Shown here piece after piece: positions 23,939 through 60,718 of a DNA stretch of 61,821 nt. The position numbers and the translations under genes are program-made. The notes under the pieces were generated by a model. It saw nothing but the letters and a program-made list of their open reading frames with translations, was not told the DNA's origin and did not search any database. The stretch's first letter is position 1. Each line of letters starts with the position of its first letter. The stretch comes from an uncultured Gammaproteobacteria bacterium (lineage in GTDB: Bacteria; Patescibacteriota; Microgenomatia; UBA8517; UBA10165), in NCBI GenBank assembly GCA_964472675.1, contig CAYYLO010000005.1, positions 1 to 61,821 on the forward strand. The letters run 5' to 3'.

Positions 23939-23956
23939 ATACGGTACAATACAAAT

Positions 23957-25903: not shown

Positions 25904-25928
25904 CAAAGAAGGTGTCATCCCAAAAACT

Positions 25929-26906: not shown

Positions 26907-28003
26907 ACCCTTACGGGCATAATGATGTGTTTATATGTGGGATCTTGTGGATCGCAGAAAACTCCTGGAGAGGTCGGACCTTGTGTCTCTATAAGAACTG
27001 TATCCCCATCTATTGAATTCAAAAAATCTAAAAGATATTTATAGTTAAAAGCTACAGTCGTCTCATCGCCCTCAGTTTTTGCTTCAATTTGTATCTCTTC
27101 TTTACCATACTGGTTGCTTTCAGATGTCAAAACCAACCCGTCTTTGTTGAAGTTTATCCTAACAATACTAGCCGATTCCCGCGCAAAAACTGAGGTAGCT
27201 TTAACAGCCTGAAAAAACTCATCTCTTCCTAATGCTGTTTTGGTCGTCCATGCTTTAGGCATTACCCTGTTGTAGTCCGGATACTCACCATCTATTAAAC
27301 GACTGGTTAATATTGTATTTTCTGATTGAAAAATTATCTGACCTTCTTTTTCTAAAACAGCAACTTTTACATCTTCTGTCTTTGTGCCTAATGTCTTATT
27401 TAATTCTTCAATAACTCTTGCCGGAAGAAGAAATTTAGATCCGGCTGCGTCAAAACTTACTCCATCAAGCTCTTTATATGACATTCTAAAACCGTCTGTG
27501 GCCACAGCAATAACCTTATCACCAACTATCAGGTTAACCCCTGTTAGAATTGGCCTGGTGTCGTCTGTTGCTGCAGAAAATGTAACATTATCAGTTAATG
27601 CCTCCAGTGTTTCTTTTTTTAAAGAAAATGTTGCATTTTCTAAAAAGTCTGGAATATTCGGGAACTCTGTTGCCGGTAATCCGGAAATATTGGCTGAAAA
27701 GTTGTTGCAGGAAATTTTTAACTGATCTTTATCTGTTTCTAATAAAACCTTACCAGCAGGCAAATGGTTTACAAGATCAACTAAAATTTTTGCAGGAACT
27801 GTAATACTTCCTTCTACTTCTACTTTTACACCTGTTGAAATATGGATTCCTGTTTCAAGATTGGTAGCCGACAAAGACAATTTGCCATTTTCGGCTTTTA
27901 GTAAAATATTTGAAAGTACCGGAAGTTGTGCACGCGTTGAAACAAATTTCGAAGCAAATGTGGTATTACTGGACAAGTCTTCCTGTAATATTGAGAGTTT
28001 CAT
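26903..28003 (-). CDS. dnaN: DNA polymerase III beta clamp
   Basis: LPVLSNILL, ATNLE, TRPILTGV, ATDGFRM, SRLIDGEYPDY, HIIMPVR. Confidence 0.98.
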   Translation of the reverse strand: MKLSILQEDLSSNTTFASKFVSTRAQLPVLSNILLKAENGKLSLSATNLETGIHISTGVKVEVEGSITVPAKILVDLVNHLPAGKVLLETDKDQLKISCNNFSANISGLPATEFPNIPDFLENATFSLKKETLEALTDNVTFSAATDDTRPILTGVNLIVGDKVIAVATDGFRMSYKELDGVSFDAAGSKFLLPARVIEELNKTLGTKTEDVKVAVLEKEGQIIFQSENTILTSRLIDGEYPDYNRVMPKAWTTKTALGRDEFFQAVKATSVFARESASIVRINFNKDGLVLTSESNQYGKEEIQIEAKTEGDETTVAFNYKYLLDFLNSIDGDTVLIETQGPTSPGVFCDPQDPTYKHIIMPVRV

Positions 28004-28084
28004 AGACTATAGTTAAAACAACATACAACATAAGACAAGTAAAGACAAGAAGTTCATCTTCTTAAGATTGTGCGCCCTCTGTTG

Positions 28085-28236
28085 TTTATTGTATTTTAAT
28101 TAGTTGTAGTAGTAGGTATTGTTGATATGTGTAAAATGAACCTGAATTCTGTTTATAACAGGTATAAGCATTTTGCTGATAAATTGTACACTTGTTACAC
28201 ACAAGGGTGTTGTAAAATTGAATTAATACACAAGTT
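28085..28236. other. oriC: Replication origin, dnaA-dnaN segment with basal unwinding element
   Basis: Minus strand TTTTACACA-TATCAACA-ATAC-CTACTACTACAACTA followed by an AT-rich tract; more degenerate boxes to 28230. Confidence 0.8.
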
Positions 28237-28237
28237 A

Positions 28238-29605
28238 TCAGGAAATGGTTTTTTTAATCCCCAGGATATCCTCATGCAATCCACCTTTTTCTAAAATATT
28301 TTTAGATATCTTATCCACAGCATGCATAACTGTAGTATGATCTCTTCCGCCAACCAACCTGCCTACCTCCTGAAGTGAAAGGCCTAAATCTATACGTAAA
28401 ATATACATTAATATTTGTCTTGGTAAGGCTACTGTTTGAACTCTACTATCACCCAGTAAGCTTCGTTTACCTAATGAATAATAATTTGAAACGGCATTAA
28501 TCACAGATTGTGGGGAAACAGGTTTTTTATACGGTTGTATATCTCCGTTTGATGTTCCTAGGAGTTTATTAACCAGTTCAATGGTTAAAGTCTCGTGTGT
28601 TAAGGTAAAGTGGCTATTGAGTTTGGTTAAAAAACCCTCAATTCTTCTGGGGCTATCAATATTGGCGGCAATAACTTGAGCTATTTCTGTTGGAAGCTCC
28701 AATCCCCTTTCTTGAGATTTAATCAAAGTGATAGCGGCACGCAATTCAAAATCTGGTGGCGCAATATCTACTATTAATCCAGCCTCAAACCTGCTTTTTA
28801 GACGTTCTTCCAGGCGTTCAATCTCATGTGGTGGTCTGTCAGAAGTAAGAATTACCTGTCCACCTTCCCTTTGAAGGGTGTTAAAGGTATGAAAAAACTC
28901 TTCCTGTACGGCTGTTTTTCCAGCAATAAATTGAATATCATCAACCATCAACAGTTTTAGTTTGCGGTATCTGTTTTTAAACGCAGGCGTTGTCTTGTTT
29001 CTTATGGCATCAACTATCTCGTTGGTAAATTCTTCTCCCATACAGTAAAGCATGGGGGTCTCAGAATCTTTTTTTAATAATTCGCAAGCAACAGATAGCA
29101 TTAAATGTGTCTTGCCTACCCCTACTCCTCCATATAAAAACAACGGGTTATATGCATACCCTGGGTTTTTACTTACTGCTTCTGCTGCAGCATGGGCCAT
29201 TTGGTTAGTTCCGGAGACTGCAAAGTTTTCAAAAGTAAAACCCGGCCTTATTCTTACCCTTTTTAAAGCATCGGAAACTAAAGCTGAACTTTGGGGCTGC
29301 AGGTTGGCAAACAATGGCTCCTCCCTCTTATTATCTGTTTTTATCTTTTGGCGTACAATAAAGGTAATATCATTTTTCAAGTTTGTAGTTTGGTTTAAAG
29401 CATCTTGCAAGATGTCGAAATACCTTTTCTCAATTCCATCGGCTATAAACGAGGACGAACAACCAATTTCAATAGCTTGCCGTATGTCTGAAATTTTCTT
29501 TATAGAAACGATAAAAGTTGAAGAAAACCATGTTTGAAAGTTAGCTTGAGAAAGCGATAATTTTAAGGTTGATAAAACATTTTTCCACACTTGATCTTGT
29601 TCCAT
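28238..29605 (-). CDS. dnaA: Chromosomal replication initiator
   Basis: YNPLFLYGGVGVGKTHL, LMVDDIQF, RLKSRF, GGRDHTTVMHA. Confidence 0.99.
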   Translation of the reverse strand: MEQDQVWKNVLSTLKLSLSQANFQTWFSSTFIVSIKKISDIRQAIEIGCSSSFIADGIEKRYFDILQDALNQTTNLKNDITFIVRQKIKTDNKREEPLFANLQPQSSALVSDALKRVRIRPGFTFENFAVSGTNQMAHAAAEAVSKNPGYAYNPLFLYGGVGVGKTHLMLSVACELLKKDSETPMLYCMGEEFTNEIVDAIRNKTTPAFKNRYRKLKLLMVDDIQFIAGKTAVQEEFFHTFNTLQREGGQVILTSDRPPHEIERLEERLKSRFEAGLIVDIAPPDFELRAAITLIKSQERGLELPTEIAQVIAANIDSPRRIEGFLTKLNSHFTLTHETLTIELVNKLLGTSNGDIQPYKKPVSPQSVINAVSNYYSLGKRSLLGDSRVQTVALPRQILMYILRIDLGLSLQEVGRLVGGRDHTTVMHAVDKISKNILEKGGLHEDILGIKKTIS

Positions 29606-29702
29606 GTTTTGTTTCCACATTAAAGAGTTATCCACAATTAGTGTCAACCCCTAAAAAGGACGAAACGCTCCCTGTTGTTTTACACGACATTGTTGTGTAA
29701 AA
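29581..29702. promoter_or_regulatory. DnaA-box cluster upstream of dnaA
   Basis: TTTTCCACA 29581, GTTTCCACA 29611, TTATCCACA 29628, TGTGTAAAA 29694. Confidence 0.75.
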
Positions 29703-29735
29703 TAATACAACTCGTTTCAAAACAGCTTCATAACG

Positions 29736-29879
29736 ATGTCTACCAAAAGAACTTATCAACCTAGTAAAACCAGAAGAATAAGGGTTAGTGGGTATAGAGC
29801 CCGTGCAAAGAGTAGATCAGGTAAAAAAGTAATATCAAGAAGGCAAAGGAAAGGTCGCAGAATTATTGCCCATAGCTAA
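29736..29879 (+). CDS. rpmH: 50S ribosomal protein L34
   Basis: Manual translation MSTKRTYQPSKTRRIRVSGYRARAKSRSGKKVISRRQRKGRR (47 aa). Confidence 0.95.
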   Translation: MSTKRTYQPSKTRRIRVSGYRARAKSRSGKKVISRRQRKGRRIIAHS

Positions 29880-30211
29880 TGCTCCCCCGTCAACACAGGC
29901 TCACTTCAAAGAAGGATTTTCAAGAAGTTTTTTTAAAAGGTAAGAACATTAGTGGCAGGTTTTTTAATATTGTTATACTACACAGTGATTCGGGCAAAAA
30001 AAGCAAGTTTGGAATAATTGTTTCAAACAAAGTTTCAAAAAGAGCTGTTTTGCGCAATCGAATCAAGAGGGTGGTTAGGTCATTTATACAAGATCACATA
30101 TTAGAATTGGAAAATGGTATAAATATTTTAGTTGTTGCCAGAAATAATTCATCTTTCCAGGAAAACACTGTACTTGCAGAAGACCTTAAAAGTTGTTTCG
30201 ATAGATTGTAA
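29879..30211 (+). CDS. rnpA: RNase P protein component
   Basis: RLTSKKDFQEV, KFGIIVSNKV, AVLRNRIKR. Confidence 0.95.
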   Translation: MLPRQHRLTSKKDFQEVFLKGKNISGRFFNIVILHSDSGKKSKFGIIVSNKVSKRAVLRNRIKRVVRSFIQDHILELENGINILVVARNNSSFQENTVLAEDLKSCFDRL

Positions 30212-30224
30212 ATCATTTTTGATA

Positions 30225-30446
30225 ATGTTAAAAAAATTTGTTTGTTTCCTGATCCGGACTTACCAGGTAATACTTGGTGGAAGGAATGGTTTTTTGTCTT
30301 TTGTTGTCGGGGGTGGCTGTCCTCAATCCCCCAGCTGTTCAGAGTATACATACCAGGCAGTTGGGAAGTTTGGAGTTGTTAAAGGGTTAAAGCTGGGGAC
30401 AATGCGTATTATTAAGTGTAGCCGCTCTATTCTGTTATGGAACTGA
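30225..30446 (+). CDS. yidD: Membrane protein insertion efficiency factor
   Basis: CPQSPSCSEY...GVVKG...RIIKC; conserved position. Confidence 0.85.
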   Translation: MLKKFVCFLIRTYQVILGGRNGFLSFVVGGGCPQSPSCSEYTYQAVGKFGVVKGLKLGTMRIIKCSRSILLWN

Positions 30447-31225
30447 TTACTCAACCATTATTAAATCTCTTAATAATTTTCTACCATTTATTATTTAGTA
30501 ATTTGGGTTTGGCTATTATTGGTTTTACTGTTTTTGTTCGGCTTTTGCTTACCCCATTAACTTTGCCGTCAATGAAAATGATGCAAAAAATGAAGGAGTA
30601 CACTCCGGAGTTAAACAAAATTAAAGCTAAATATAAAGATGACAAAAAGAAGTTGTTACAGGCACAAACCGATTTCTATAAAGAAAAAGGTATTAATCCT
30701 GCATCGGGATGTTTACCACAAATAGTAAGTATTGTAATTCTTATTGCGTTATTCAACGGCTTTTCTCAAGTTTTTCAAGGATCCAATATAACTCAACAAT
30801 TAAATAAGGTTCTTTACCCTGTTTTACAAATTAACGGAGAAATTAATCATTTTTTCTTTGGCCGCGATTTAACGCGGCCCGACGTTCTTAATATTAGCGG
30901 TATACCCTTTGCGCTCCCGGGTTTGTTTTTAATTGTGGTGGCGTTGGTTCAGCTACTTTCCTCTAAAATGATGATGCCTAACGTTCAAGCTGCTGAGAAA
31001 GTAGCCAAAAAGACCGAAGAAGGGTTTGATGATATTGCAGCCTCTATGCAATCACAAATGACATATATTTTCCCCCTAGTTACCTTGTTTATTGGCTTAA
31101 ATTTCCCTCTAGGGGTAGTTTTATATTGGGGCACCTTCTCTCTTTTTCAAGCAGTCCAGCAGTATTTTGTGTCCGGTTGGGGAGGTTTGGCCCCTTGGGT
31201 TAATAAGTTTAGGAAAGTTGTCTAG
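30437..31225 (+). CDS. yidC: Membrane protein insertase YidC/Oxa1
   Basis: GLAIIGFTVFVRLLLTPL, GINPASGCLP, GVVLYW. Confidence 0.95.
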   Translation: MELITQPLLNLLIIFYHLLFSNLGLAIIGFTVFVRLLLTPLTLPSMKMMQKMKEYTPELNKIKAKYKDDKKKLLQAQTDFYKEKGINPASGCLPQIVSIVILIALFNGFSQVFQGSNITQQLNKVLYPVLQINGEINHFFFGRDLTRPDVLNISGIPFALPGLFLIVVALVQLLSSKMMMPNVQAAEKVAKKTEEGFDDIAASMQSQMTYIFPLVTLFIGLNFPLGVVLYWGTFSLFQAVQQYFVSGWGGLAPWVNKFRKVV

Positions 31226-31273
31226 AAAACCTCTCTTTGTCAGATTCAAACAAAACTGGTACAATACCTGAAC

Positions 31274-31735
31274 ATGGTTGCTAAAAAACAGGATTTAATC
31301 AAGGAAATTGTTGAGGAGTTGTTAAGGCTCGCGGGTATTGAGGGGTCAGCTGAAGTTGCTGAAGATAAGGAAAATGGATTTTTTAATGTTCAAATAGAAA
31401 CGGAACAAGCAGGGGTTTTAATTGGACACCGTGGAGAAACCCTTTCCTCTCTTCAAACGGTTGTAAGGCAGATTGCTTTTAACAAACTGGGTGAGAATAC
31501 AAATATACTTATAAATGTTGGAGACTGGAAGACAAAGCGCGAAGAAACTTTGAAAAATATTGCCCAAGTGGCAGTAAATAAAGTTAAAAACACAGGTGTT
31601 GCTCAACATGTTTACGATTTAACACCAGCAGAGCGCAGGTTTGTACATGTATTATTAGAAGATGATGGTGAAGTTGTAACTGAATCAGAAGGTGAAGGAC
31701 GGGAGCGCCATTTAGTTATTAAACCTAACGTATAA
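31274..31735 (+). CDS. jag: Jag/KhpB RNA-binding protein (KH + R3H)
   Basis: LIGHRGETLSSLQ, AERRFVH, SEGEGRERH. Confidence 0.93.
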   Translation: MVAKKQDLIKEIVEELLRLAGIEGSAEVAEDKENGFFNVQIETEQAGVLIGHRGETLSSLQTVVRQIAFNKLGENTNILINVGDWKTKREETLKNIAQVAVNKVKNTGVAQHVYDLTPAERRFVHVLLEDDGEVVTESEGEGRERHLVIKPNV

Positions 31736-31890
31736 AAGAAAGCAGAATTTCTCTTCGGCTACGCGTAAAAGAAAGCAGAATTTCTCTTCAACTTCGTATA
31801 AAAGAAATCTGAATTTCTCATCCTGTCAGAGCGTATACACTTCGTATATTGAAAATTAGAATTTTCTCAAACTTCGTATAAATTTCTCCA
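31729..31890. repeat. Degenerate tandem repeat tract (33-nt period)
   Basis: TAAAAGAAAGCAGAATTTCTCTTC identical at 31733 and 31766; degenerate copies follow; CTTCGTATA recurs. Confidence 0.8.
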
Positions 31891-31909
31891 TATTTGTTAC
31901 AATAGCTTT

Positions 31910-33199
31910 GTGGATATTGGACGTTTAATTTTTAAGAATGCCTCTTTTCAGGTAATTGGTAAAGTAATTACTATTTTCTCCTCGCTCCTCCTCACTTGGT
32001 TTTTGCGAGATAGGCTTGGCAATGAAGGGTACGGCGTTTACGTTTTTGTTACAGCATTTGTTTTGTTTTTTGGCAATATTGCCGATTGGGGTACCAATTT
32101 GATCGTGGTCCGCGAAGCATCAAGAGTAAACCAGGAAAATCAAAACACCATCTTTACAAGTAGTATAAGTTTTCGTCTGCTTCTCTCTTTCATTGCTGTT
32201 ATTCTGGTCAATATTTTTATTCGTGCCAACCTTGAGTGGCAGCCTTTTGTTTTACCAGCAACTATCGCGTCTTTTGTTCTGTTGGCCCTTTCCCTAAAGA
32301 ATTCCCTGGCGATCATTCTCCAGACAATTATGCGATTTGGGCTGCTTACAATGATGGAGGTTTTATTGTCCATTTCCTTTTTGTTACTTTCTGTTGCTTT
32401 TTTAATTAACAACTTTAATGTGCACTATGTAATGCTTGCCTGGGTTGTGGCTACAGCTATTTCAGCATTTTTGGGTTTTTGGTTTACCAGACAACACCTG
32501 AAAAGATTTTCCTTTGACTGGAATGTGAGCAAAAAAATAATTAAGGAGGCGTTGCCTACAGGAACACTACTTATCGTTTTTTCCATTTACAACAGAATAG
32601 ACATTCTTATTTTGCAGCATTTTTGGGGAACGGACAGCGTTGGTGTCTATGGACTTTCTTACAAGATTTACGAGACTTTAATAACTGGCGCCGCTTTTAT
32701 CGTTAGTGCCGCCTATCCCCTTTTGTCTTCCTTAAAACACACAGAAGATGTTCGACACGTTTATCAAAAAACCTTTAATATTCTTGCTGCCACCTGTCTA
32801 GTATTATTTTTGGTAACTTTTATTTTAGCCCCATCAATAAAATTACTTTGGGGTGAAAGCTCTCTCGCCTCTGTTTTGCCGCTGCGAATTTTATCTGTTG
32901 CTTTAATTTTTTCCTACCTTAACCATTTAACTGGTTATTCCTTAATTGCTTTAGGCAAACAAAAAATATCATTGTTAATTGGAGTATTTGCTTTACTTTT
33001 AAATTTGTCTCTTAACTTTCTGTTAATTCCCCACTATTCTTATCAGGCTGCCTCAGTAATGACTGTTGTGACAGAGGGTTTTGTTTTTGTGTGTTCCTCT
33101 GTTGCCCTTTATCAACTGACAGATCTTCGTCCCTCTTTTCTTTCTTTTCCCAAAACCATATACTCACTCTTGTTTGCAAGGAGAAAAAATGGAAAGTAA
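31910..33199 (+). CDS. Oligosaccharide flippase (Wzx/RfbX family)
   Basis: 12+ TM, LGNEGYGVY, IADWG, RIDILIL, VGVYGLSYK. Confidence 0.9.
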   Translation: MDIGRLIFKNASFQVIGKVITIFSSLLLTWFLRDRLGNEGYGVYVFVTAFVLFFGNIADWGTNLIVVREASRVNQENQNTIFTSSISFRLLLSFIAVILVNIFIRANLEWQPFVLPATIASFVLLALSLKNSLAIILQTIMRFGLLTMMEVLLSISFLLLSVAFLINNFNVHYVMLAWVVATAISAFLGFWFTRQHLKRFSFDWNVSKKIIKEALPTGTLLIVFSIYNRIDILILQHFWGTDSVGVYGLSYKIYETLITGAAFIVSAAYPLLSSLKHTEDVRHVYQKTFNILAATCLVLFLVTFILAPSIKLLWGESSLASVLPLRILSVALIFSYLNHLTGYSLIALGKQKISLLIGVFALLLNLSLNFLLIPHYSYQAASVMTVVTEGFVFVCSSVALYQLTDLRPSFLSFPKTIYSLLFARRKNGK

Positions 33200-33617
33200 T
33201 TCGCTTAAGGTTTTTTCAGATGGAGGGGCTCGCGGCAACCCCGGTCCTGCTGCCAGTGCTTTTGTAGTTAAAGATTTTCAGGACAATATAATTTATAAAA
33301 GTGGCAAAACAATTGGCAACACCACAAACAATATTGCAGAGTATACAGGAGTGAAAATGGCAATGGATTGGCTAGTTGAAAACAATAAAGAGAATTTTAA
33401 AATAAATTTTTTTTTGGATTCTCAACTAGTTGTTAATCAATTAAAAGGACTTTTTAAAATTAAAAATGAAAACTTAAGGAAAATAGTTTTATCAATTAAA
33501 GTGCTGGAAAACAAACTAAAAGCGGGAGTAACTTATCAACATATACCCCGCGAACAAAATAAGGAGGCAGATCTTTTAGTGAACATGGCACTTGATGGCT
33601 CTCCAATACTTTCATAG
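33189..33617 (+). CDS. rnhA: Ribonuclease HI family protein
   Basis: SDGGARGNPGPA, TNNIAEY, DSQLVV, NKEADLL. Confidence 0.9.
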   Translation: MESNSLKVFSDGGARGNPGPAASAFVVKDFQDNIIYKSGKTIGNTTNNIAEYTGVKMAMDWLVENNKENFKINFFLDSQLVVNQLKGLFKIKNENLRKIVLSIKVLENKLKAGVTYQHIPREQNKEADLLVNMALDGSPILS

Positions 33618-33735
33618 TTTCACAATAAAATTTTACTTTTGCAACTGACTTTCACGTCTCGCTAACACAAAATTTACTCATTTTTTATTTTGGAAGTTTC
33701 TTGCATTAATTTGTGAATTTGCCTACCATTAAAGC

Positions 33736-36570
33736 ATGTACCCACTGCCGGAATTTTTTTTTGATGGCAACTCTCCCATATCCTTAGTTTTTGGTGGAGC
33801 AAGTTTTATTGGTAGTCATCTATGTGAAGAACTTTTAAAAAAAAATATCCGTGTAATTTGTATTGACGACTTTGAGATTTTACCTGAAGAAAATATTTCT
33901 CATTTAAAAGGCAATTCTCAATTTGTTGCTGTTGATAGTAAAAATATTGAAAGACTTTTTGAAAGTATTGAAAGAGTTAATTATGTTGTTGATATTTATG
34001 GCGTTGATAATAAATGTACAAAATTATTAATCAAACTGGCAGACAAATTTAACTCACGTTATTTGTACGTCTCATCTTTTTTGAGTGAAGAATCAGAATT
34101 TAGTTTTGTTCATAAAAATGAACAAGAAGAAGATTTTCTAAGAAACCTAACCACTGAATATTCAAAACAAAAATTCAACTTCCGCATTGTCCGCCTGGGT
34201 GATGTCTACGGACCGCGGATGCATTTATTAGATGACAACCCCCTTTCTTTTTTGGTTGGAGAATATACCAGAGAGCGAAAGGTCAAAGTTCACGGAGATG
34301 AGTCATACGTGTACCCCTTATTTATTGATGATGCGATATGGGGGATTGTCAAAACATTATTATCACCTGGCACAAAGGGGTCGGTAATTTCTTTAACCGG
34401 AGACCGGTTAACATTTTCGGAGACTGCAGAGACTATAAAGTCTCTTAAAAGTGGTACTCCTGTTGAATATATAAGTCAGGACAAATTTCCAAACCGGCAA
34501 AAATTTTTGGGTGAGGGGTTTTTGCGAAAAGGAAGAGAACTTATCAACTGGGAGCCGCATACCACACCAACAGAGGGTTTGGCACATACACTCGAGTGGT
34601 TGGATAAAAATAAGAAAAAACTTAGTTTTACCAAAGTTGCACAAAAGAAGGAGAAAACAACTCTTGTTAACAAGCCAGCACCAGTCAGGAAGACTATGCC
34701 CCTAAAAGTTGTAAAGGCATATACCGGGTTTTGGCAGGACACCTTATCTAAAGAAAAAGAAGTAACTCCTCCCAAAAAGGCTATTAAAAAAAATGTTTTT
34801 ATTAAACCAATCCTTGCTGGAATTTTTTCGCTTACTATTTTTATATTGTGGTTTTTGGCTTTTCCGTTTGTTGAATTGTTTTTGGGACTGGCTAATTTGC
34901 AAATAGCCCAAAGCAAAATGGGCCAAAAAGATTTTCGTGATGTTGAAACTTGGGCAAGTATCTCAAGCTTTTGGTTTAAAAACTCTCAGGAAAGTTTCTT
35001 AAGATGGTCATCGCTGCCTCTTTTAAAAGCATATTCCACCAATATGGCCCAAAAGGGGAGAATAATGGATCGGGTTGTTGATATTGTCAAAAAGAAAAAA
35101 GACATAAGAGAATCTTCTGATGAGTTATTTGAAAAAGTTTTAGGTGAAGACTCTTACTCAATTGCGCCCTTTGCCAGTTCACTTTCAGTGCAAAGCTCTT
35201 CACTAGATCAAGGTTTGGCCTTTTTGGCCACAGAGATACAGGACGACAAAAACTTATTAAGTATGGTGACGAAGCGGTTGGGTGACTCAAGCGCCCAACT
35301 GTCTGATTTACGGGGACAAGCACGAATTATTTCAGGCCTGGCAGCAAATTTAGGAGATATTTTAGGATCTAAGACTAGGAAGTCTTATTTGGTACTTATT
35401 CAAGACAATACTTATGCAAGGCCAGGTGGGGGTTCTATTTTAGGATATGGAGTCCTCACTCTTGATAAAGGCAGGCTAATCTCAGGAGAATTTTTTAAAA
35501 CAGTTGTTGCAGATGGTCAGCTTAAAGGCAGAGTAGATCCGCCCCAACCGCTTGCAAAATACAAAAACCAGAATACATGGATGCTTAAGGATGTTTCTTG
35601 GGATCAGGACTTTTCAGTAGTTGCCAAAAGGGCAATTTGGTTTGCAGACAAAGAATTGGATCAAAAAATGGATGGGGTGATCTCTGTTGACCTGGATTTT
35701 TTGGCGGACGTTGTTAAAGAATCTGGTCCAATAGCAATAGAAGGGACAAAGGTTGATTCTAAAAATTTATACAAGCTGGTTTTAAGTAAAGATGGTGAGG
35801 AGAAGCAAGCGGTTGTGGTAAACATTTTTAATCAAATTTACGATAGTCTAATCAAAAACCCAGGTAAAATAGGGGATGTGTTGGGTGTAAAAAGTTTGGA
35901 AAACTTGGACCAAAAACACATCATGCTCTATGTTAACAACGCTCAAGTACAAAACATATTAGCCGAAGGTGGATGGGGGGGCTCAACTAAATATACAACC
36001 TGCACGGAGGGAGAGTCCTGTTTTGCTGATTACCTTAATTTCGCAGACGCCAACATGGGCGAGGGGAGTGTGAACTATTACCTAAAAAGATCTTTCTCTT
36101 TGGATGTTTTTATACAAAACGGGAAAGTTTTAAGAAAGCTGACAGTATTTTATAAAAGTAGCTCAAAAAACGGCTACAAGAATTATTTTAAAATTCTTAT
36201 CCCATCAGGTGCTGTAAACTCTAAAGCTTTTTTAGTAGATCAAAAGAAGGGTACACAAGAGAGCGTAAGCTTAGATATTCAAAACCAAAATAACAAAAGC
36301 TTACTCGGAGGATACATGGTTATACCAGGCGGAGAGGAACGGCAACTTATGCTTTCCTGGGAATCTGACCAAGGCGCTCTTTCTGACTATACGCTGGTGT
36401 GGCAAAAACAACCCGGCACTTCAAAAGAAGCCTTTTGGCTGACCGTAAACAACCCAAAATCAAGCTTAAAAGAGGCAAAACCGACTCCTTCATTGACAGG
36501 CTCAGGGTCAGTTGGGTACAATAGCACATTAGTAAGAGATTTCTTGCTAACAACCAAATGGCAAAAATAG
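33736..36570 (+). CDS. Degenerate NAD-dependent epimerase domain + TM + DUF4012 extracellular domain
   Basis: GGASFIGSHL, RLGDVYGP; TM near residue 360-390; YLVLIQDN..RPGGG, DGVISVD, DANMG. Confidence 0.8.
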   Translation: MYPLPEFFFDGNSPISLVFGGASFIGSHLCEELLKKNIRVICIDDFEILPEENISHLKGNSQFVAVDSKNIERLFESIERVNYVVDIYGVDNKCTKLLIKLADKFNSRYLYVSSFLSEESEFSFVHKNEQEEDFLRNLTTEYSKQKFNFRIVRLGDVYGPRMHLLDDNPLSFLVGEYTRERKVKVHGDESYVYPLFIDDAIWGIVKTLLSPGTKGSVISLTGDRLTFSETAETIKSLKSGTPVEYISQDKFPNRQKFLGEGFLRKGRELINWEPHTTPTEGLAHTLEWLDKNKKKLSFTKVAQKKEKTTLVNKPAPVRKTMPLKVVKAYTGFWQDTLSKEKEVTPPKKAIKKNVFIKPILAGIFSLTIFILWFLAFPFVELFLGLANLQIAQSKMGQKDFRDVETWASISSFWFKNSQESFLRWSSLPLLKAYSTNMAQKGRIMDRVVDIVKKKKDIRESSDELFEKVLGEDSYSIAPFASSLSVQSSSLDQGLAFLATEIQDDKNLLSMVTKRLGDSSAQLSDLRGQARIISGLAANLGDILGSKTRKSYLVLIQDNTYARPGGGSILGYGVLTLDKGRLISGEFFKTVVADGQLKGRVDPPQPLAKYKNQNTWMLKDVSWDQDFSVVAKRAIWFADKELDQKMDGVISVDLDFLADVVKESGPIAIEGTKVDSKNLYKLVLSKDGEEKQAVVVNIFNQIYDSLIKNPGKIGDVLGVKSLENLDQKHIMLYVNNAQVQNILAEGGWGGSTKYTTCTEGESCFADYLNFADANMGEGSVNYYLKRSFSLDVFIQNGKVLRKLTVFYKSSSKNGYKNYFKILIPSGAVNSKAFLVDQKKGTQESVSLDIQNQNNKSLLGGYMVIPGGEERQLMLSWESDQGALSDYTLVWQKQPGTSKEAFWLTVNNPKSSLKEAKPTPSLTGSGSVGYNSTLVRDFLLTTKWQK

Positions 36571-51968: not shown

Positions 51969-52553
51969 TCAAATAGCTCTCAAAACGAAACCTTTTGACT
52001 GGCCGAATTGAAGAAAACCGGAGATATCCAAAATTGTGTTTTTGATATTCGATTGTTCAAATACAGTTCTGTCAAGATTTGTATCCGACAAGTTGGTTCC
52101 CTCAAGATTACATTTTTCAAAAACAGTTTCTTCTAAGTTTGATCCATGATAATCGACACCTGCCAGGTCACAAGATATAAACACAGTTCTTGCGAGATTT
52201 GTTTTTACAAAAGTACAGGATTTTAAGTCGAAATTTTTCCTTGCGCCTTTATTGCTAGCTTTAAATTTTTGGAAAATGCAGTTGACTAAGGAAGAACCTG
52301 TAAGGTCACATTTCTCAATACTAGCTTGGGCAAAATTCAGGTTGCTAAAACTACATTCCTTAAAGGTACATTGGGAAAGGTTAGTAATCTCAAAAAGATC
52401 GCCCTGAAATTCGCAAGCAGAAAAAGTACAGCTGTCAAAATTTACAAAATGTAGACTAATGTTTACAAACTTGCAGTTGGTAAAAGTGTTCTGCGCAAAA
52501 TCTTGTCCACTCAACTCTTTTGTCGTAAACACCTGGTTTTTATATTGGTTCAT
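51969..52553 (-). CDS. Pentapeptide repeat protein
   Basis: FTNCK/FSACE/FKECS/LEGTN/LDRTV five-residue repeats. Confidence 0.9.
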   Translation of the reverse strand: MNQYKNQVFTTKELSGQDFAQNTFTNCKFVNISLHFVNFDSCTFSACEFQGDLFEITNLSQCTFKECSFSNLNFAQASIEKCDLTGSSLVNCIFQKFKASNKGARKNFDLKSCTFVKTNLARTVFISCDLAGVDYHGSNLEETVFEKCNLEGTNLSDTNLDRTVFEQSNIKNTILDISGFLQFGQSKGFVLRAI

Positions 52554-52629
52554 GGACAAACTGTAGCAAACATTCGTATTTGGGGGATACAATTAGGTGC
52601 AGAGTGGGGACAACAGAAAGGAGGAGAAA

Positions 52630-53468: not shown

Positions 53469-56400
53469 GTGAACAAGAAACCTGTTTTTTCTGTTCCGCA
53501 AATTGCTAGGGGAGGAGTAATTTCTCTCTTGCTGTTAGGGGTTTGCGCGTTTTTTCCCGGATTCGCTCTAGCGTCTTCTCAAAAATCTTCTTATTACGAC
53601 TTTGGGCCATACTATGGTCGAAGTCAGGTGCTAGGTTATTCTTTTTCCAGTCTGGAAAATTTGCCTGTTCCTAAAATTCCGGACAATCTTTTGCCCAAGG
53701 AAGCTGGCGGTATTACTCCAGGAAGTATTTTTTACCCGCTTGAGCGTGCGGCGGAAAATCTACAACTTACTTTTACATTTAACCCCATTAAGAAGGAGGA
53801 GTTAAGGCTTGAGTTTGCTACGGAGAGGTTTTCGGAGGCAAAAACCTTAGTTGATCAGGGCAAAACCGAGGCGGCCTCGCAAGCCTTAAGTGATTATCAA
53901 AAGGGCATAAAGGATATTGCTGAGGCTTTATCGAACTTAACCCAACAAGGTGATTCTTCGTTGTCAGTGTTAGTTGATAAGGTGGGAGAGGTTGTGGGCA
54001 GTCAGGCAATAGTTGGGCAAACCTTAAGTTTGGACATTGCTCCCGCACAAGCGGAAAGCTGGACCGCGGCGAGCAGAGAAGGCCAAAGGCTATTGGATGA
54101 GGTAGCGGAAACAAGAGGGGAGTCTCCAATACCTCAAGACTTGTCTTCCAGAATTCAAAAACTCAAGGATCAGGGGTTGTTGGGTGAAGAAGAGAGCAAC
54201 AAATTGTATAGCTTTAAAACTCGGTCTGAAGTAAGAAGCGAGATGGAGAAGCTAGCTTCTTCGGGCCAGCTCCCGGCTTCTGAGCTTAGCTGGCTTGATA
54301 CAGTAATAACACAGGAATTTCCGGATGTCCAACAGGCATTAAGAGCCAATTTTCAAGTAGCAGAGTTGCGCACCTACCAGGCGTTGCCCCAACCGTCAAA
54401 GGAAGTGTTAGCAGAAATTAAAAAGTGGCAAGGGGATACTTCTGTCCCTGTACCAAACGAGATTAAACCATACTTGTGGTATAGCAGAGCCCAGGAAATT
54501 GCACAGGGTGTTGACCTTTCAAATTTTTCGGCAGATCAACAGTTTGAGGTCGCAAAGGCGTATCCGCAAGTTGCAACAGAAAACCCCACTTACTCATATG
54601 TTCCTCTACCTTCGCCAACTCCGTCTATTAGCCCCGAGCTCACAGAACAAGTCCCTTCCACGGTTCCCTTACCATCTCCAACACCTTCGGTTGCCCAAGT
54701 TTCAGCGGAACCTTATCTTGCTGATTCTAGCGGGGCTTTGCCCGGGCAGCCGACCTACTTTCTAAAGCAATTCGGAGAGCAGCTTGCATATACTTTCGCT
54801 TTTAGCTCGACTGACAGGGTGCAGCTTAAGATGCAATATGCCGAGCGGCGCTTGGCAGAAGCTAGGCGATTGTCGGAGGATCCCGGCAAGGCTTCTTTGT
54901 ACAAGTCGACGATTGAAAACTACCGCAAGACCTTGGAAGACGCCTCTATCTTGCTTAAAAATAGTGCTGGTGATGATGGGCAAAAAACTTTAGTTGCAGA
55001 AAGGCTTGAGGCTCAAGCAGGAAGGCATGAAGTTTTATTAGAAAAAGGCCTCTTACCTTCAGGAGAAGATCCACAACTAATTCGGGGAGCCATACGTGCC
55101 ACAGAGGATGCGATGGACAGAAGCGCTGACGTTTTGGAAAGGAGCGCACTACCTGCTTCTTTGTCTCAAAGGTTAGGAGACCTTAAGGCTCAGGGTTTGA
55201 TACTTGCCGAGGAGGCGGAAGATTTGGTTAGATCAAGCTCTCGTGAGGAGGTCAGAGAAAAGGTGCGCAAGCTTGTGGAACTAAATACGATTCCGTTGGC
55301 TGATGCCAAGAAGATGGATGAGAGTCAGGTTTTAACCTCTCCTTCGGATTATAGTCAACTGGTTGAGGTTAGAAAAATCGAAGAGCTGCAAAATTTAAGA
55401 TCGGTTCAAGCCGATTTGGCTCAAACTCCTGCCTTAAAATCCAACCTAACCACTCTAGCCCAAAAAGAGACAGCCTTAGCTAGCTCTTTTGATCCTGCAT
55501 TTGTCAAACTGGAAGATTTGGGGGGCAGGGAAGACCTGGCCAAAACCTATGAAAGACTGGCATCGGTTCCCCGTCCTATTAATGGCGGTCAGTTTGGAGC
55601 AGAAGCAACGCCTGGCGCTCAGCCCGCAGTTGTTACCCCCCAACCCCAGGACGCAGTCTTATCTGCTTGTCCTGAGGGGGCTATTTTTAAGCAATTTGAA
55701 GGTTGTGTTTGGGCTGACAATGGAAGAAGAATTAATGATTATGATCAGTATAAGTGCGAGGGCCCCAGACAGTATTATTCTTTTGCTGTCGGAAAATGTG
55801 TAGCCAGTGATCAAAAAGGGGGCGCTGTGGAGGATGCTCAACCCATTTGTCCAATAGGCTATAGTTGGAGTTGGCAAAACCAGAGTTGCCAAGCCTATAC
55901 TGGTGGGGGGTCATTGCCCCTGCCCACCCCTCCTGTGGAACCCGAGCCAAAGGATGATCAAGAGCGCGAGAAAAGAGCAAAGAGTTGCCCGGAAGGGTCT
56001 TCTTATCAGACGCCTAATGGCTGTGTTTGGGATAAAAGCGGCAAATCGGTCTATGATTCCGAACAGTACCGTTGTGGACGGCGTCAATATTATTCATTTG
56101 AGGAAGGGGGATGTGTTGCCTCTCCCGAAGAAGGACAGCCTTATCCTAAAAATACCAACCCTGTTTGCAAAGAAGATGGTACCTTTTGGAGTTGGAATGA
56201 AGGGAAATGTATTAGTGCTATTTTCCCGTTAAAACAAGAGGACGGGAATACTTCTAAGATAATTATTGATGATTTTAGGTCTCCTTTTATAGCTCCTGGT
56301 AGTCCATTTTATATTTTCAAGCAGGCGGCAGAGAGGGCACAACTGGCTCTATCATTTACTGCACCAGCCAGAGAACGGGTTAGCCTGTCTCAAGCTAAAG

Positions 56401-58985
56401 AGAGATTGGTTGAAGCTGCTGATGCTTTAAAGAAAAATGACGAGAAAACTGTTAAAAAAGCTTTGGAAGCTTACACCTCTGCGATGCAGGGTATTGTGGC
56501 CGATGTGTCCCGGGAACAACTGAGCGAGGGGGCCAGGAAGGAAATCTCAAAACTGCTGGCTGAGGAGTCAGCTGAACAAAATTTATTGCTTGAGAGATTG
56601 TCAGCTTGGGCTCCTAAGGAGCATGATATTGCCATCAACGCTGCTGTATCAGCCACTATTTTGGGAGTTGATAAGGCGGCAGACATAGCTGGCGAGCCTC
56701 CGGTTCCTGATGAAGTTAGAAGCAAAATTGAGTCCTTGCCAGAAAAGATGATTTCTGAGGAGGACAAGAAAGCTCTTCTCGATATGGATTCCCGTGTAGA
56801 AGCCAGACTCAAACTAGGAGGATTAGTGACAAGTGGCGTTTTGACCCAAGTTGACGCAGCTTTCTTAAACGAGGATTTTGAGGCTGTAGACGAAACGGCC
56901 AAGATCAAAGTAGAAGAACTGAAAAAGCTGGAGGAGATTACTAGTGCTTCCGATAGCATTGACAAAATAGAAGAAAGGATAGGAAAGAATGAAGAAGTTG
57001 TTCAAAAACTGGAGGAATTTAAAAAGACTTTCGAGGTTGGAGAAGTGGTAGCAGACGAGATCCGTTCTTATGTTAAATTAACAAGGATTGACGAGGTGAC
57101 TGGGACCATAAGGCCCGATATTGTCAAGCTGGAAGATTTTTCAAACCGTAAAGATGTTGTTTTGGCGGTTGCCACCTTGCAAGAAGAATTTCGTCCTACA
57201 AAAGAGGCTTTTTCGAAGGTAGAAGATTTTAGGAGAAGAAACCCCAACGTCATTTTGCCTCCTGACCTGGCAAGAATTGAAGCACTCTCTTATAGCCTTG
57301 GAGTTAGGGGGCAGGCAAGCTCGTGCTTCTTGCCTTCTCCACCATTCCCAGTCGGCACTCCGTGTCCGGCGCCAGGAGCAGCAATACCGATTGCATCGTA
57401 TTACGACTACAATACAGCTAACTTGTTTGGAACGAACGCAGTTGGCGGACAAGGGGTTGGGGCAACCGCACCATCACTTGACAAGGATGGTAAACCTTTG
57501 GTTTATGGTCAAGGCCCAAAAGCTGAGAGCGCAGGTGTCTGTTCTTCGGGATATCATTGGATGTACGACAGCGGGGGGTGGTGCATGTCCAACAGTGGCA
57601 GTTATAGCCCTTCTTACACTTATACGCCAACTGGCACTGGTTCAGGCTATACTCCTTACAGCCCCTATTACACTGCCCCTGGTGCCCCTCCTGCTACTTA
57701 TGGTTATCCTGGAAATAACAACTACCCTGCCTCGCCTTACTCATACAGCCCGCCAAGTTACTATGGTACTGCCCCCACTTATTACACCACCAATCCGCCT
57801 GCCGGAACTGTTCCAGGTTCAGGACCTAAGCCTACGGCTCCTGGTCAATGTCCTTCGGGATACCACTGGATGAGTGACAGTGGAGGCTGGTGTATGTCTG
57901 ATGGCCCAACTTATGTGCCGGCAGGAACCACCACAGACAGCACGCCTCCATCAGGAGGATATAACTGTGGTAGCCAGCCTTATGATCCAGTTACGAAAAA
58001 ATGTAAAGACGGAGCTTGTCCTGGTGGTTATAACTGGGATGGTAGTAAGTGTGTGACCAGTGGGGGTTATTCGGGAGGAGGGAGTGCTCCTGGCTCATAC
58101 CAGTATGGTTGCACTCCGGGCTATTACTGGGACGGCAGTAAATGCGTAGCAGGCAGCTATTCTGGCGGAGGCTGGTCAGATGCAGCTGCCAGATCCCAAT
58201 CCTGGTGTCAACCACCCTCAGGCGGCTGTGGCTCCAATTCTTATTGGGATTATGGAAGCTGTTACTGCCGAAGCTCAAGCAATTATTATGGAGGTAGCGG
58301 TCCCTCGCCAAGCAATCAATGCCAAGGTCTAAGCTGTGGCGGAGGTGCCTGGTTAGATTACTCAACCTGTAGTTGCAAGTATTCAGGATCAACTTCTGGC
58401 AACTCAGGCGGTCTAACTTGTTACCCTCCTTCTGCAGGTTGTCCAGGCGGCTGGTATGATTATGGCACTTGCTCTTGTAAATCCTCTTCATCTAGCACAG
58501 GCTCGAGCGGAGGAAGTAGTTATTGTTCTCCTCCCTCAGGCGGGTGTGGATCAGGCTGGTGGGATAGCGGATCGTGTTCGTGCAGACAGGCTTCCTCACA
58601 AGGCTGTTACAATGTATCGGCTTCAAGTTGCGGAGCAGGATGGTATTTTGATGCAGGTTTGTGTACTTGCCGACAAAACTCTGAAAGCAGCACAACTACT
58701 ACATCTGGAGGAACTTCCGGTGGATCATCCTCTTCTGGCTCCTGCCCATCTGGATACCACTGGATGAGTGACAGTGGAGGCTGGTGTATGTCTGATGGCA
58801 GTAGTGGGTCTGGTGGCTCTTCTTCATCTACCACTACAACCACCACAGAGCCTGCGCAAACTACTACGCCGACAACAACTACTACAACCGAGACGAGTTC
58901 ACAGCCTGCGCCAGCGCCGACTGAAAATACCACTACCACTACAACCACCACAGAGCCTGCGCCAGCGCCGACAACATCTCCATGA
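53469..58985 (+). CDS. Giant secreted/surface protein: three DUF5667-like modules, Cys-rich repeats, Thr/Pro tail
   Basis: PGSIFYPLERAAE / PGQPTYFLKQFGE / PGSPFYIFKQAAE; CPSGYHWMSDSGGWCM repeats; identical 48 nt at 57858 and 58752. Confidence 0.85.
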   Translation: MNKKPVFSVPQIARGGVISLLLLGVCAFFPGFALASSQKSSYYDFGPYYGRSQVLGYSFSSLENLPVPKIPDNLLPKEAGGITPGSIFYPLERAAENLQLTFTFNPIKKEELRLEFATERFSEAKTLVDQGKTEAASQALSDYQKGIKDIAEALSNLTQQGDSSLSVLVDKVGEVVGSQAIVGQTLSLDIAPAQAESWTAASREGQRLLDEVAETRGESPIPQDLSSRIQKLKDQGLLGEEESNKLYSFKTRSEVRSEMEKLASSGQLPASELSWLDTVITQEFPDVQQALRANFQVAELRTYQALPQPSKEVLAEIKKWQGDTSVPVPNEIKPYLWYSRAQEIAQGVDLSNFSADQQFEVAKAYPQVATENPTYSYVPLPSPTPSISPELTEQVPSTVPLPSPTPSVAQVSAEPYLADSSGALPGQPTYFLKQFGEQLAYTFAFSSTDRVQLKMQYAERRLAEARRLSEDPGKASLYKSTIENYRKTLEDASILLKNSAGDDGQKTLVAERLEAQAGRHEVLLEKGLLPSGEDPQLIRGAIRATEDAMDRSADVLERSALPASLSQRLGDLKAQGLILAEEAEDLVRSSSREEVREKVRKLVELNTIPLADAKKMDESQVLTSPSDYSQLVEVRKIEELQNLRSVQADLAQTPALKSNLTTLAQKETALASSFDPAFVKLEDLGGREDLAKTYERLASVPRPINGGQFGAEATPGAQPAVVTPQPQDAVLSACPEGAIFKQFEGCVWADNGRRINDYDQYKCEGPRQYYSFAVGKCVASDQKGGAVEDAQPICPIGYSWSWQNQSCQAYTGGGSLPLPTPPVEPEPKDDQEREKRAKSCPEGSSYQTPNGCVWDKSGKSVYDSEQYRCGRRQYYSFEEGGCVASPEEGQPYPKNTNPVCKEDGTFWSWNEGKCISAIFPLKQEDGNTSKIIIDDFRSPFIAPGSPFYIFKQAAERAQLALSFTAPARERVSLSQAKERLVEAADALKKNDEKTVKKALEAYTSAMQGIVADVSREQLSEGARKEISKLLAEESAEQNLLLERLSAWAPKEHDIAINAAVSATILGVDKAADIAGEPPVPDEVRSKIESLPEKMISEEDKKALLDMDSRVEARLKLGGLVTSGVLTQVDAAFLNEDFEAVDETAKIKVEELKKLEEITSASDSIDKIEERIGKNEEVVQKLEEFKKTFEVGEVVADEIRSYVKLTRIDEVTGTIRPDIVKLEDFSNRKDVVLAVATLQEEFRPTKEAFSKVEDFRRRNPNVILPPDLARIEALSYSLGVRGQASSCFLPSPPFPVGTPCPAPGAAIPIASYYDYNTANLFGTNAVGGQGVGATAPSLDKDGKPLVYGQGPKAESAGVCSSGYHWMYDSGGWCMSNSGSYSPSYTYTPTGTGSGYTPYSPYYTAPGAPPATYGYPGNNNYPASPYSYSPPSYYGTAPTYYTTNPPAGTVPGSGPKPTAPGQCPSGYHWMSDSGGWCMSDGPTYVPAGTTTDSTPPSGGYNCGSQPYDPVTKKCKDGACPGGYNWDGSKCVTSGGYSGGGSAPGSYQYGCTPGYYWDGSKCVAGSYSGGGWSDAAARSQSWCQPPSGGCGSNSYWDYGSCYCRSSSNYYGGSGPSPSNQCQGLSCGGGAWLDYSTCSCKYSGSTSGNSGGLTCYPPSAGCPGGWYDYGTCSCKSSSSSTGSSGGSSYCSPPSGGCGSGWWDSGSCSCRQASSQGCYNVSASSCGAGWYFDAGLCTCRQNSESSTTTTSGGTSGGSSSSGSCPSGYHWMSDSGGWCMSDGSSGSGGSSSSTTTTTTEPAQTTTPTTTTTTETSSQPAPAPTENTTTTTTTTEPAPAPTTSP

Positions 58986-59689: not shown

Positions 59690-60718
59690 CTATTTATTTC
59701 GTTTACTTTCTCCCTTGATTAGCTTCTTCACCACCCGATCAAAGTCAGACTCAATTGGCTGAATCTTGTTGAACTCTCTATACTCAGCCAAGGCTTTCTT
59801 ATCAGCATCATCCTTTGAAACTTTTCCCTTACCGTCCAAAATTCTGTACTCATTGAACGTCAGGAATTTATTAACACTTTCAGCGAACTCTTCCATGTTG
59901 AATGTCTGTCGGTTTTCAATCAGATTTTCGATGTAGTCAAAGAACCCAGTAACAGTTCGTTCAAGTTTTTTAATCTGTTCTTCTGGCAAATAATTTTTAG
60001 CTACCATAACATCAGCAGATAAAATTCTGCCGGCTGGTGCTTGTTTCCAAGTGGTCAAGCCCATGTGAGGTTGGCGACGATCTGCCCGCTTATCGATCAA
60101 CTCAGCTGCAGTGTGACCAGTGATGGCGTAATGGAACTTGTTTTGAACAGTAGCAAAGAAATCTTTAGTGGTTTGGGAGTGAGGATCGTAATCTATGCTA
60201 CATTCTGCAAAGATATCAGTTATTTGCTGATAAATACGACGTTCGCTTGACCGGATCGAACGAACCCTTTCCAGCAATTCACGAAAATAATCCTGACCAA
60301 AAACTTTCTCTCCTTGCTTAAGACGATCATCGTTCAAGGCAAAACCCTTGATTATGTATTCTCGAAGCACTTGGGTAGCCCAGATTCTGAATTGTGTGGC
60401 TCTTTGTGAGTTAACCCGATAGCCAACCGCAATAATGGCATCAAGATCATAAAAAACGACTTCTCTTGAAACCTCTCTGCCACCCTCATTTTGAACTATT
60501 CGAATTTTTCGAATGGTTGAATTTTCTGATAATTCGCCACTCTTAAACACTTCCTTTAAGTGGTAGTTAACTGTATTCACTTCTACACCGAACAGATCCG
60601 CCATCATTTTCTGAGTCAACCACAATGTTTCGTCTTGAATAAACACATCCAGCTTTATATCTCCACCTGGGGAAGTGTAAAGAATGAATTTAGATGTTTG
60701 CGTCAGTTCATTTACCAT
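59690..60718 (-). CDS. Virulence RhuM family protein
   Basis: TLWLTQKMMADLF, YDLDAIIAVGYRVNSQRATQFRIWAT, AKNYL. Confidence 0.92.
   Translation of the reverse strand: MVNELTQTSKFILYTSPGGDIKLDVFIQDETLWLTQKMMADLFGVEVNTVNYHLKEVFKSGELSENSTIRKIRIVQNEGGREVSREVVFYDLDAIIAVGYRVNSQRATQFRIWATQVLREYIIKGFALNDDRLKQGEKVFGQDYFRELLERVRSIRSSERRIYQQITDIFAECSIDYDPHSQTTKDFFATVQNKFHYAITGHTAAELIDKRADRRQPHMGLTTWKQAPAGRILSADVMVAKNYLPEEQIKKLERTVTGFFDYIENLIENRQTFNMEEFAESVNKFLTFNEYRILDGKGKVSKDDADKKALAEYREFNKIQPIESDFDRVVKKLIKGESKRNK

Follow-up and report, generated by a model that had tools for sequence, protein, structure and literature searches.

A three-module DUF5667 protein with cysteine-hairpin arrays: a candidate extracellular surface protein of the Microgenomates

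The stretch of DNA analyzed here (the window) comprises 61,821 nucleotides (nt) of contig CAYYLO010000005.1, and toward its end lies a single large gene whose product of 1838 amino acids (aa) combines three helical modules with several sets of short cysteine-bearing units (Table 1). A first-pass annotation, made from the sequence alone, had described this product as a surface protein; the open reading frame (ORF), all of the motifs then listed, a 48-nt identical run and the Thr/Pro tail were each found again by ORF calling, regular-expression scanning and Pfam. The scan places two CPxG..GCVW motifs at aa 734 and 840, both within the internal Cys block, three C.SGYHWM.DSGGWCM motifs (hereafter HWM hairpins) at aa 1358, 1461 and 1759, two GY.WDGSKCV motifs at aa 1520 and 1551, and five C..W/Y..C.C units (hereafter 4-Cys units) in aa 1587-1734. 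The identical run is shared by HWM copies 2 and 3 (57858-57905 and 58752-58799). None of these features is a product of chance, because the Cys positions and the motifs are kept in 30 full-length orthologues.

Searched as a whole against Pfam, the protein matches DUF5667 (PF18915) in three stretches (E 3.8e-47; 159.2 bits, the cut-off being 27); in a sub-region scan, module 1 by itself reaches 82.3 bits. No other Pfam family was matched above threshold by the whole protein or by any of five sub-regions, and an NCBIfam scan of the protein gave no match. The three modules, each of about 300 aa, are mutually homologous (23-28% identity; E 1e-12 to 1e-18), and the internal Cys block is itself a duplication, its two halves being 43% identical. 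Of the 47 Cys residues one falls in the signal peptide, leaving 46 in the mature chain, an even number, as expected of a disulfide-bonded secreted protein, and one that would allow up to 23 disulfide pairs. Cys makes up 2.6% of the protein overall and is concentrated in two regions, reaching 8-10% only in aa 1500-1800. The earlier picture of a Cys-rich part confined to the tip of the molecule is thus incorrect, since a 180-aa Cys block sits between modules 2 and 3.

Table 1. Features of the cysteine-rich gene and of the ORF directly downstream (window coordinates)
Feature	Residues (aa)	Position	Strand	Remarks
Whole gene	1-1838	53469..58985	+	1838-aa secreted protein; GTG start
Signal peptide	1-36	53469..53576	+	Basic n-region, ~19-aa hydrophobic core, end ..FALA/SS (slash, cleavage site)
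Mature N-terminus motif YYDFGPYY..QVLG.SFSSLENLP	37-80	53577..53708	+	0.58 identity, many invariant residues; low-confidence model
Module 1	81-375	53709..54593	+	DUF5667 helical bundle + distal short helices
Module 2	416-700	54714..55568	+	DUF5667 helical bundle + distal helices
Internal Cys block	733-915	55665..56213	+	2 x (three C-x11-13-C beta-hairpins); 6 Cys per ~80-aa half
Module 3	941-1283	56289..57317	+	DUF5667 helical bundle (pLDDT 85-90) + distal helices
C1286-x12-C1299 Pro-rich loop		57318..57398	+	CFLPSPPFPxxTPC; both Cys invariant
HWM hairpin 1	1358-1373	57540..57587	+	CSSGYHWMYDSGGWCM; motif scan, alignment, model
Tyr/Pro-rich linker	1381-1458	57609..57842	+	Predicted disordered; 0.70 identity in orthologues
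HWM hairpin 2	1461-1476	57849..57896	+	CPSGYHWMSDSGGWCM; 48-nt identical run with copy 3
Three 2-Cys hairpins	1500-1559	57966..58145	+	Include 2 x GYxWDGSKCV; motif scan, model
Five 4-Cys units	1580-1734	58206..58670	+	Consensus CxPPsgGCGsNsYWDygSCSC; most variable part
HWM hairpin 3	1759-1774	58743..58790	+	CPSGYHWMSDSGGWCM; letters as in hairpin 2
Ser/Thr/Pro tail	1778-1838	58800..58985	+	EPAPAP-type repeats; no hydrophobic anchor, no LPXTG
Downstream ORF	118 aa	58982..59338	+	Overlaps stop codon of the large gene (ATGA); transmembrane anchor + weakly cupredoxin-like domain

A hydrophobicity scan finds a single hydrophobic segment in the protein, at aa 5-38, which had previously been left as a signal peptide or transmembrane (TM) segment. 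The second of these options is not supported: the orthologues carry a canonical cleavable signal peptide, consisting of M-x-x-PKK, about 17 hydrophobic residues, a Pro at about -6 and [FVS]-A at -2/-1 (i.e., P-x-x-x-[FVS]-A/S, the slash marking the cleavage site). Because the hydrophobic segments of the orthologues end in this canonical signal-peptidase site, we conclude that the protein is exported and most probably cleaved, and so would be secreted rather than N-anchored. No orthologue has a lipobox Cys after the signal peptide, the site being FA/S, and the window protein has no sortase signal, that is, no LPXTG motif, C-terminal hydrophobic segment or charged tail, in agreement with the first-pass statement that a C-terminal anchor is lacking. 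At the other end, the mature orthologues start with a near-invariant YYDFGPYY..QVLGFSFSSLENLP. The tails of the orthologues end in ..EPAPAPSP. Two of the orthologues (P0025 and P0027) possess an additional conserved C-terminal segment after the Pro-rich tail, QG[VA][HS]TEKNILQF[AI]L[ED][MI]L[FL]G[NK]LR, which is missing from the window protein and from most orthologues and which could form an amphipathic helix or serve as a different means of attachment. Together, the signal peptide, the even count of 46 mature Cys and the finding that the Cys of one unit are retained or lost jointly across orthologues uphold the earlier view of an extracytoplasmic, disulfide-rich protein.

The export data also bear on a possible regulatory function. 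DUF5667 is found in some membrane-anchored regulatory proteins, and this is the sole ground for reading the present protein as an extracytoplasmic sensor or regulator in which DUF5667 would serve as the signaling ectodomain. With no TM segment after the signal peptide, no cytoplasmic domain and no regulator among the conserved neighbors, we regard this as very unlikely.

Structure was predicted with AlphaFold2 and family alignments as two half-models, aa 1-935 (mean predicted local distance difference test score [pLDDT], 71.8; predicted template-modeling score, 0.59) and aa 925-1838 (mean pLDDT, 60.3). The DUF5667 modules are modeled as helical bundles (pLDDT 85-95), and every Cys unit is modeled as a two-strand beta-hairpin (pLDDT 60-82) lying between disordered linkers. 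In all, 17 short units, each with one 2-Cys or 4-Cys set, take this form, separated by linkers rich in Pro, Ser, Thr and Tyr; within the 2-Cys units, the first Cys is placed about 4 residues ahead of strand 1 and the second inside strand 2. The "triple helical stalk" of the first-pass annotation thus survives in part: there are indeed three helical DUF5667 modules, but they are predicted to be compact bundles of 13- to 46-residue helices, with no long coiled coil.

When regional identities are expressed as those of the orthologues to the window protein, conservation varies greatly along the chain. The HWM hairpins are the most conserved part (0.82-0.83), followed by the C1286-C1299 loop (0.74), the Tyr/Pro-rich linker (0.70), the internal Cys block (0.63-0.68, with 10 of its 12 Cys invariant and the other two kept in 93% of orthologues) and the helical modules (0.47-0.65), while the 4-Cys array (0.42, with 36% gaps) and the Ser/Thr/Pro tail (0.32) are the least. 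Outside the variable array, almost all Cys are 0.9-1.0 conserved. The HWM consensus is C-P-S-G-[YF]-H-W-M-[SY]-D-[SN]-G-G-[WY]-C-M, and all 83 of the 16-residue units share its H, W, M, C and M without exception. The 4-Cys unit, of which 162 examples were collected from 48 proteins, has the consensus C-x-P-P-s-g-G-C-G-s-N-s-Y-W-D-y-g-S-C-S-C.

The first-pass annotation had taken the Cys-rich part for a recently expanding, eukaryote-like adhesin tip of the CXCXC or peritrophin type, binding chitin or another glycan. The identical run in HWM copies 2 and 3 speaks for such an expansion, as does the number of 4-Cys units, which, as had been supposed, differs between full-length orthologues (2 to 7). 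All three HWM copies are nevertheless present in most orthologues, and the internal Cys block in essentially all of them. At the DNA level, copies 2 and 3 are 0.83 identical in the window versus 0.64-0.71 in the two orthologues in which this could be measured. Given that the HWM copies predate the divergence of the family, and given this difference in copy 2/3 identity, the 48-nt run reflects lineage-specific gene conversion between old copies, i.e., homogenization in the window lineage, and not a new duplication. The hairpins are, moreover, themselves the most conserved parts of the protein.

Groundwater metagenomes, in which the window sequence is itself present, also bear on the question of expansion. 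When groundwater contigs were mapped onto the gene, contig word depth across window positions 58076-58495 (the 4-Cys array) was 10-20x that of the flanking gene in four metagenome runs, with many variant contigs and tangled joints. Raised depth and tangled contigs might be taken as a sign of ongoing expansion. Several of the joints, however, are not multiples of three, and the sequences involved therefore represent related sequences from other genomes, not assignable to strains. This shows that closely similar repeat-coding DNA is common to many co-occurring genomes and is not readable as strain-level copy-number variation; of the proposed comparison of repeat number among strains, the metagenome contigs thus deliver many related sequences and no strain-level count.

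The supposed kinship with eukaryotic modules fared no better. The Cys regions gave no match to CXCXC, CBM14, EGF or similar families in Pfam up to E<=10, and the 4-Cys repeat of a second protein that carries it (P0041) gave none at E<=1. The best sub-threshold Pfam matches were to DUF5874 (PF19202), which scored 21.1 bits in the internal Cys block where 27.1 are required, and to RANK_CRD_2 (E 0.18); these, HHH_2 and the remaining weak matches all lie below threshold and were set aside. Two named candidates were also rejected on their layout: the CXCXC repeat (PF03128), because our 4-Cys units end in C-x-C only and find no Pfam match, and peritrophin-A/CBM14 (PF01607), a domain of about 65 aa with six Cys, because our units are 13-21 aa long with 2 or 4 Cys and again find no match. 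PDB sequence searches were empty with the Cys regions and gave nothing meaningful with the family profile. The domain-wise AlphaFold and Foldseek comparison that had been suggested returned hairpins and helical bundles, with no match at E<=1e-3 to a eukaryotic module or to anything else for both half-models against the PDB and for the C-terminal half against BFVD; the sole Foldseek matches were generic designed helical repeats. Finally, when the C-terminal 511 aa served as the query of an exhaustive phmmer search, just 21 of 1.84 billion representative proteins were recovered at E<=1e-3. Natural C-terminal fragments aligned too poorly for a profile, and this search was therefore made with a single sequence. 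The homology and recency parts of the eukaryote-like adhesin proposal are accordingly largely refuted, and as a whole we consider it improbable; judged from its sequence, the protein appears not to derive from a eukaryote and not to have expanded recently. Neither Pfam nor NCBIfam contains the 4-Cys and HWM units, which appear to be uncurated repeats.

Those 21 proteins comprise orthologues and two other architectures; the ones with a named source are from Microgenomates, and the remainder are unnamed metagenome proteins. One of the two architectures (P0041, P0050 and P0054) consists, in order, of a signal peptide, 7-20 tandem 4-Cys units (at least 15 in P0041), Cys-containing helical repeats, an immunoglobulin (Ig) domain resembling Big_13 in a weak, sub-threshold match and a C-terminal TM helix. 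The 4-Cys array of this TM-anchored class forms the membrane-distal end, and an outward-facing role of the 4-Cys units is therefore supported. A shorter relative (P0043, 812 aa) is collinear with the signal peptide, the N-terminal motif and the beginning of module 1, after which its alignment continues with module 3 and the C-terminal Cys region. The three-module form thus looks like an internal expansion of a single-module architecture (P0043, P0044, P0051 and P0053). On sequence divergence, we judge this triplication to be ancient, because the 23-28% identity between modules is far deeper than the divergence between orthologues, whose mean column identity is 53% in the 30-sequence alignment. 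A homologue search with module 1 brought in nothing beyond partial orthologues, without any further architecture or name.

Orthologues were located at 41 loci in a pattern-seeded scan of 185,579 GTDB species genomes, always one locus per genome, a complete 820,589-bp chromosome (CP066688.1) included. The window contains no paralogue of the gene. Full-length identity to the closest proteins is 44-65%, and those that are named derive from metagenome-assembled genomes (MAGs) of Candidatus Daviesbacteria, Levybacteria and Blackburnbacteria. All of the informatively titled loci belong to Microgenomates (Daviesbacteria, Levybacteria, Blackburnbacteria, Gottesmanbacteria, Woykebacteria and "Microgenomates group"). 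Third-party-annotation (TPA) MAGs with an orthologue (L009, L016, L018, L019, L022 and others) are often titled "uncultured Gammaproteobacteria," with one Planctomycetia and one Dehalococcoidia; these titles are likely placeholders or mis-binned labels, because gene content and the protein itself point to Microgenomates.

Taken together, these data lead us to favor, with roughly even confidence, a Sec-secreted, disulfide-stabilized extracellular protein that binds at or coats the cell surface and that is single copy and lineage-wide in the Microgenomates, a group of the candidate phyla radiation (CPR). After export, an oxidative folding system of the MdbA/VKOR type would staple each hairpin, and the helical bundles and Pro-rich linkers would act as spacers between hairpins. 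The HWM hairpins would display their unvarying aromatic, His and Met residues and thereby offer multivalent sites to a conserved ligand, possibly a glycan or envelope polymer either of the cell itself or of a host or partner cell, and the variable 4-Cys array would supply reach or avidity. Retention at the surface would be noncovalent, through the invariant N-terminal YYDFGPYY motif, the Pro-rich tail or both. Adhesion or glycan capture, as suggested in the first-pass annotation, is a putative role.

Several observations weigh against this interpretation. Neither end of the mature protein bears a recognizable covalent or TM anchor, and surface retention is therefore itself inferred; model confidence is low between the units; and a CxxC scan of the 62-kb window found no thiol oxidoreductase and no thioredoxin-like candidate. 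As to this last point, the presence of DsbA/B had been proposed as a check, and while none is encoded in the window, MdbA-like oxidoreductases and VKOR have been reported to be enriched in CPR, with sortase near-ubiquitous in Microgenomates (Meheust et al. 2019, PMC6744442). In addition, identity is a uniform 50-65% along the entire chain, the gene is single copy and it is often found between rplA and rplJ, a pattern closer to that of a housekeeping envelope protein than to that of a host-range adhesin under fast evolution.

These last features fit a structural component of the envelope or coat, a wall-associated scaffold or matrix serving envelope architecture rather than host or glycan capture. 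The gene is single copy and conserved at full length in Daviesbacteria, Levybacteria, Blackburnbacteria, Gottesmanbacteria and Woykebacteria, it is kept in an 820-kb genome, it lies between rplA and rplJ in 10 or more loci, and even its predicted-disordered Tyr/Pro linker is 0.70 identical. Pfam and NCBIfam scans nevertheless disclosed no S-layer, SLH or wall-binding domain, a variable-length 4-Cys array fits an avidity or spacer array better than a lattice, and a Cys-rich composition is unusual for S-layer proteins. We therefore see a purely structural function as possible, though rather unlikely.

There is no universal partner gene, neighbors differing among loci with two partial patterns only. 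First, rplJ lies just downstream in 10 loci (on the same strand in 7), and in many Daviesbacteria (L001, L002, L007, L010, L011, L014, L023, L039, L046 and others) the conserved secE-nusG-rplKAJL cluster is split by the orthologue, which lies between rplK-rplA and rplJ-rplL. In 9 loci, a gene just upstream codes for a 296-aa protein that matches Dockerin_1. Second, a homologue (about 115-145 aa) of the 118-aa product of the downstream ORF is encoded directly downstream in 8 other loci (L017, L020, L022, L027, L037, L041, L043 and L047), which belong to Blackburnbacteria and others, and is absent from about three quarters of loci. The 118-aa protein scores 17.7 bits against Cupredoxin_1, below the cut-off of 27, and matches PDB entry 9cck_A at E 5.5e-5; it and its homologues share invariant GxHxxH and HxHxxP motifs and have no Cys of their own; in L022 the homologue is fused to a Cys-rich C-terminal domain of about 340 aa. 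It is possible that this cupredoxin-like protein is a partner of the large one.

Such a partnership would be central if the large protein bound or handled extracellular metal, namely copper, together with its membrane-anchored cupredoxin-like neighbor. The invariance of His, Trp and both Met in the 83 HWM units is suggestive, as His and Met are otherwise rare in the protein (of the 5 His and 13 Met in the mature window protein, 3 and 6, respectively, lie in HWM units), and the DSSP register of the model pairs M1365 with W1371 and H1363 with M1373, which would set H, M, W and M on one face. The recurrence of the TM-anchored, cupredoxin-like neighbor in 8 other loci, with its invariant His motifs, points in the same direction. 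The face assignment is, however, deduced from strand register, the Met are not kept in the single-module relatives P0043 and P0051, and glycan binding or hairpin packing would also account for a face of aromatic, His and Met residues. The cupredoxin matches are themselves weak, and most loci do without the neighbor gene. We accordingly think it improbable that the protein handles copper, and we hold as quite doubtful the more specific idea that the HWM hairpins would be miniature Cu(I)-type His/Met/Met/Trp sites on an extracellular scaffold, acting with the cupredoxin-like protein. Were this true, the ultrasmall Microgenomates cells would carry an exposed metal-capture or redox device of an undescribed kind.

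Returning to the favored interpretation of a secreted surface protein, its wider interest lies in the biology of the group. The genomes of CPR bacteria are tiny and their lifestyle is believed to be one of attachment to other cells, yet nearly all of their surface proteins lack annotation. Because this one gene amounts to about 0.65% of an 820-kb genome and has been retained in several Microgenomates lineages, its product is likely to be a central element of the surface that these cells show to their environment. The analysis removes the misleading label "eukaryote-like, recently expanding" and offers three handles: the uncurated 4-Cys repeat of 21 residues, the His/Trp/Met hairpin of 16 residues with its invariant positions and the recurrent cupredoxin-like neighbor.

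The remainder of the window contains a number of other genes of note. A type IV secretion or conjugation-like cluster (about 18900-26900) includes a PrgI-family gene (20375-21367), a VirB4/TraG-type P-loop ATPase gene (22064-23938) and a gene for a 648-aa protein with an M23 peptidase domain (23957-25903), and is flanked by large ORFs without a Pfam match (12322-13431, 15358-16770, 16796-18853 on the minus strand, and 18914-20272). Genes dnaN and dnaA (26903-29647, minus strand) adjoin a low-GC stretch (28000-34000; 0.35-0.37 versus about 0.42-0.45 elsewhere), which is probably the chromosomal origin region; yidC (30437-31225) is close by. A Polysacc_synt flippase gene (31910-33199) marks a neighborhood of cell envelope polysaccharide genes, within which a 944-aa ORF (33736-36570, plus strand) presents an unusual fusion of an N-terminal NAD-dependent epimerase/dehydratase fragment to DUF4012. 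A tmRNA gene (1191-1557, plus strand; Rfam, 133.8 bits) encodes the tag peptide GTDYSAARVTTYAYAYA. Near the large gene lie a RhuM-family gene (59690-60718, minus strand; E 1e-108) and a pentapeptide-repeat gene (51969-52592, minus strand), with a Fic/DOC gene at 14295-15314 (plus strand); these three may be mobile or defense associated. In a different genome, the Daviesbacteria contig CAZCNP010000001.1 (L001), a 5984-aa product (19590-21517 and beyond) with Hint/intein, NYN and Peptidase_S74 matches is encoded a few kilobases from the orthologue.

How does the protein compare with known systems? With other DUF5667 proteins it shares clear Pfam matches and an up-down helical bundle that follows a signal peptide, and some orthologues are indeed named "DUF5667 domain-containing protein" at NCBI; it differs in having the module in triplicate, with an extension of about 150-200 aa of additional helices and a fusion to arrays of Cys hairpins. 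Literature and PDB searches brought up no known function, solved structure or paper for DUF5667, and the literature held nothing specific on cysteine-rich or adhesin proteins of Daviesbacteria or on disulfides in Patescibacteria. By description only, the protein resembles those of another CPR phylum, the Peregrinibacteria, for which large, Cys-rich extracellular proteins with a proposed role in attachment have been reported (PMC4736985). Like the present protein, these are large and unannotated, with a signal peptide; their Cys content averages about 7% (versus 2.6% overall here).

The hairpin arrays recall, in their general construction, those of eukaryotic modules such as CXCXC, peritrophin-A/CBM14, EGF, furin-like and TNFR-like CPxG[YF] hairpins, which are likewise arrays of short, disulfide-closed beta-hairpins that display aromatic residues. 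The units described here, however, are 13-21 aa long, contain 2 or 4 Cys, end in C-x-C and show no sequence or profile match to these modules. Sortase-anchored adhesins of the MSCRAMM (microbial surface components recognizing adhesive matrix molecules) type also share an N-terminal signal peptide, modular repeats and a Pro/Thr-rich C-terminal segment resembling a wall-spanning region, but the modules here are helical instead of Ig-like, and LPXTG, hydrophobic end and charged tail are absent. As for metal binding, the Cu(I) site of CusF consists of a His and two Met residues with a capping Trp. The same four residue types are invariant in the HWM hairpins and, as read from the model, would share one face; CusF is an OB-fold barrel, whereas the HWM unit is a 16-residue disulfide hairpin, and the two are not homologous. 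In its general kind, then, the protein is a bacterial secreted repeat surface protein, the general nature of which would not surprise a CPR specialist.

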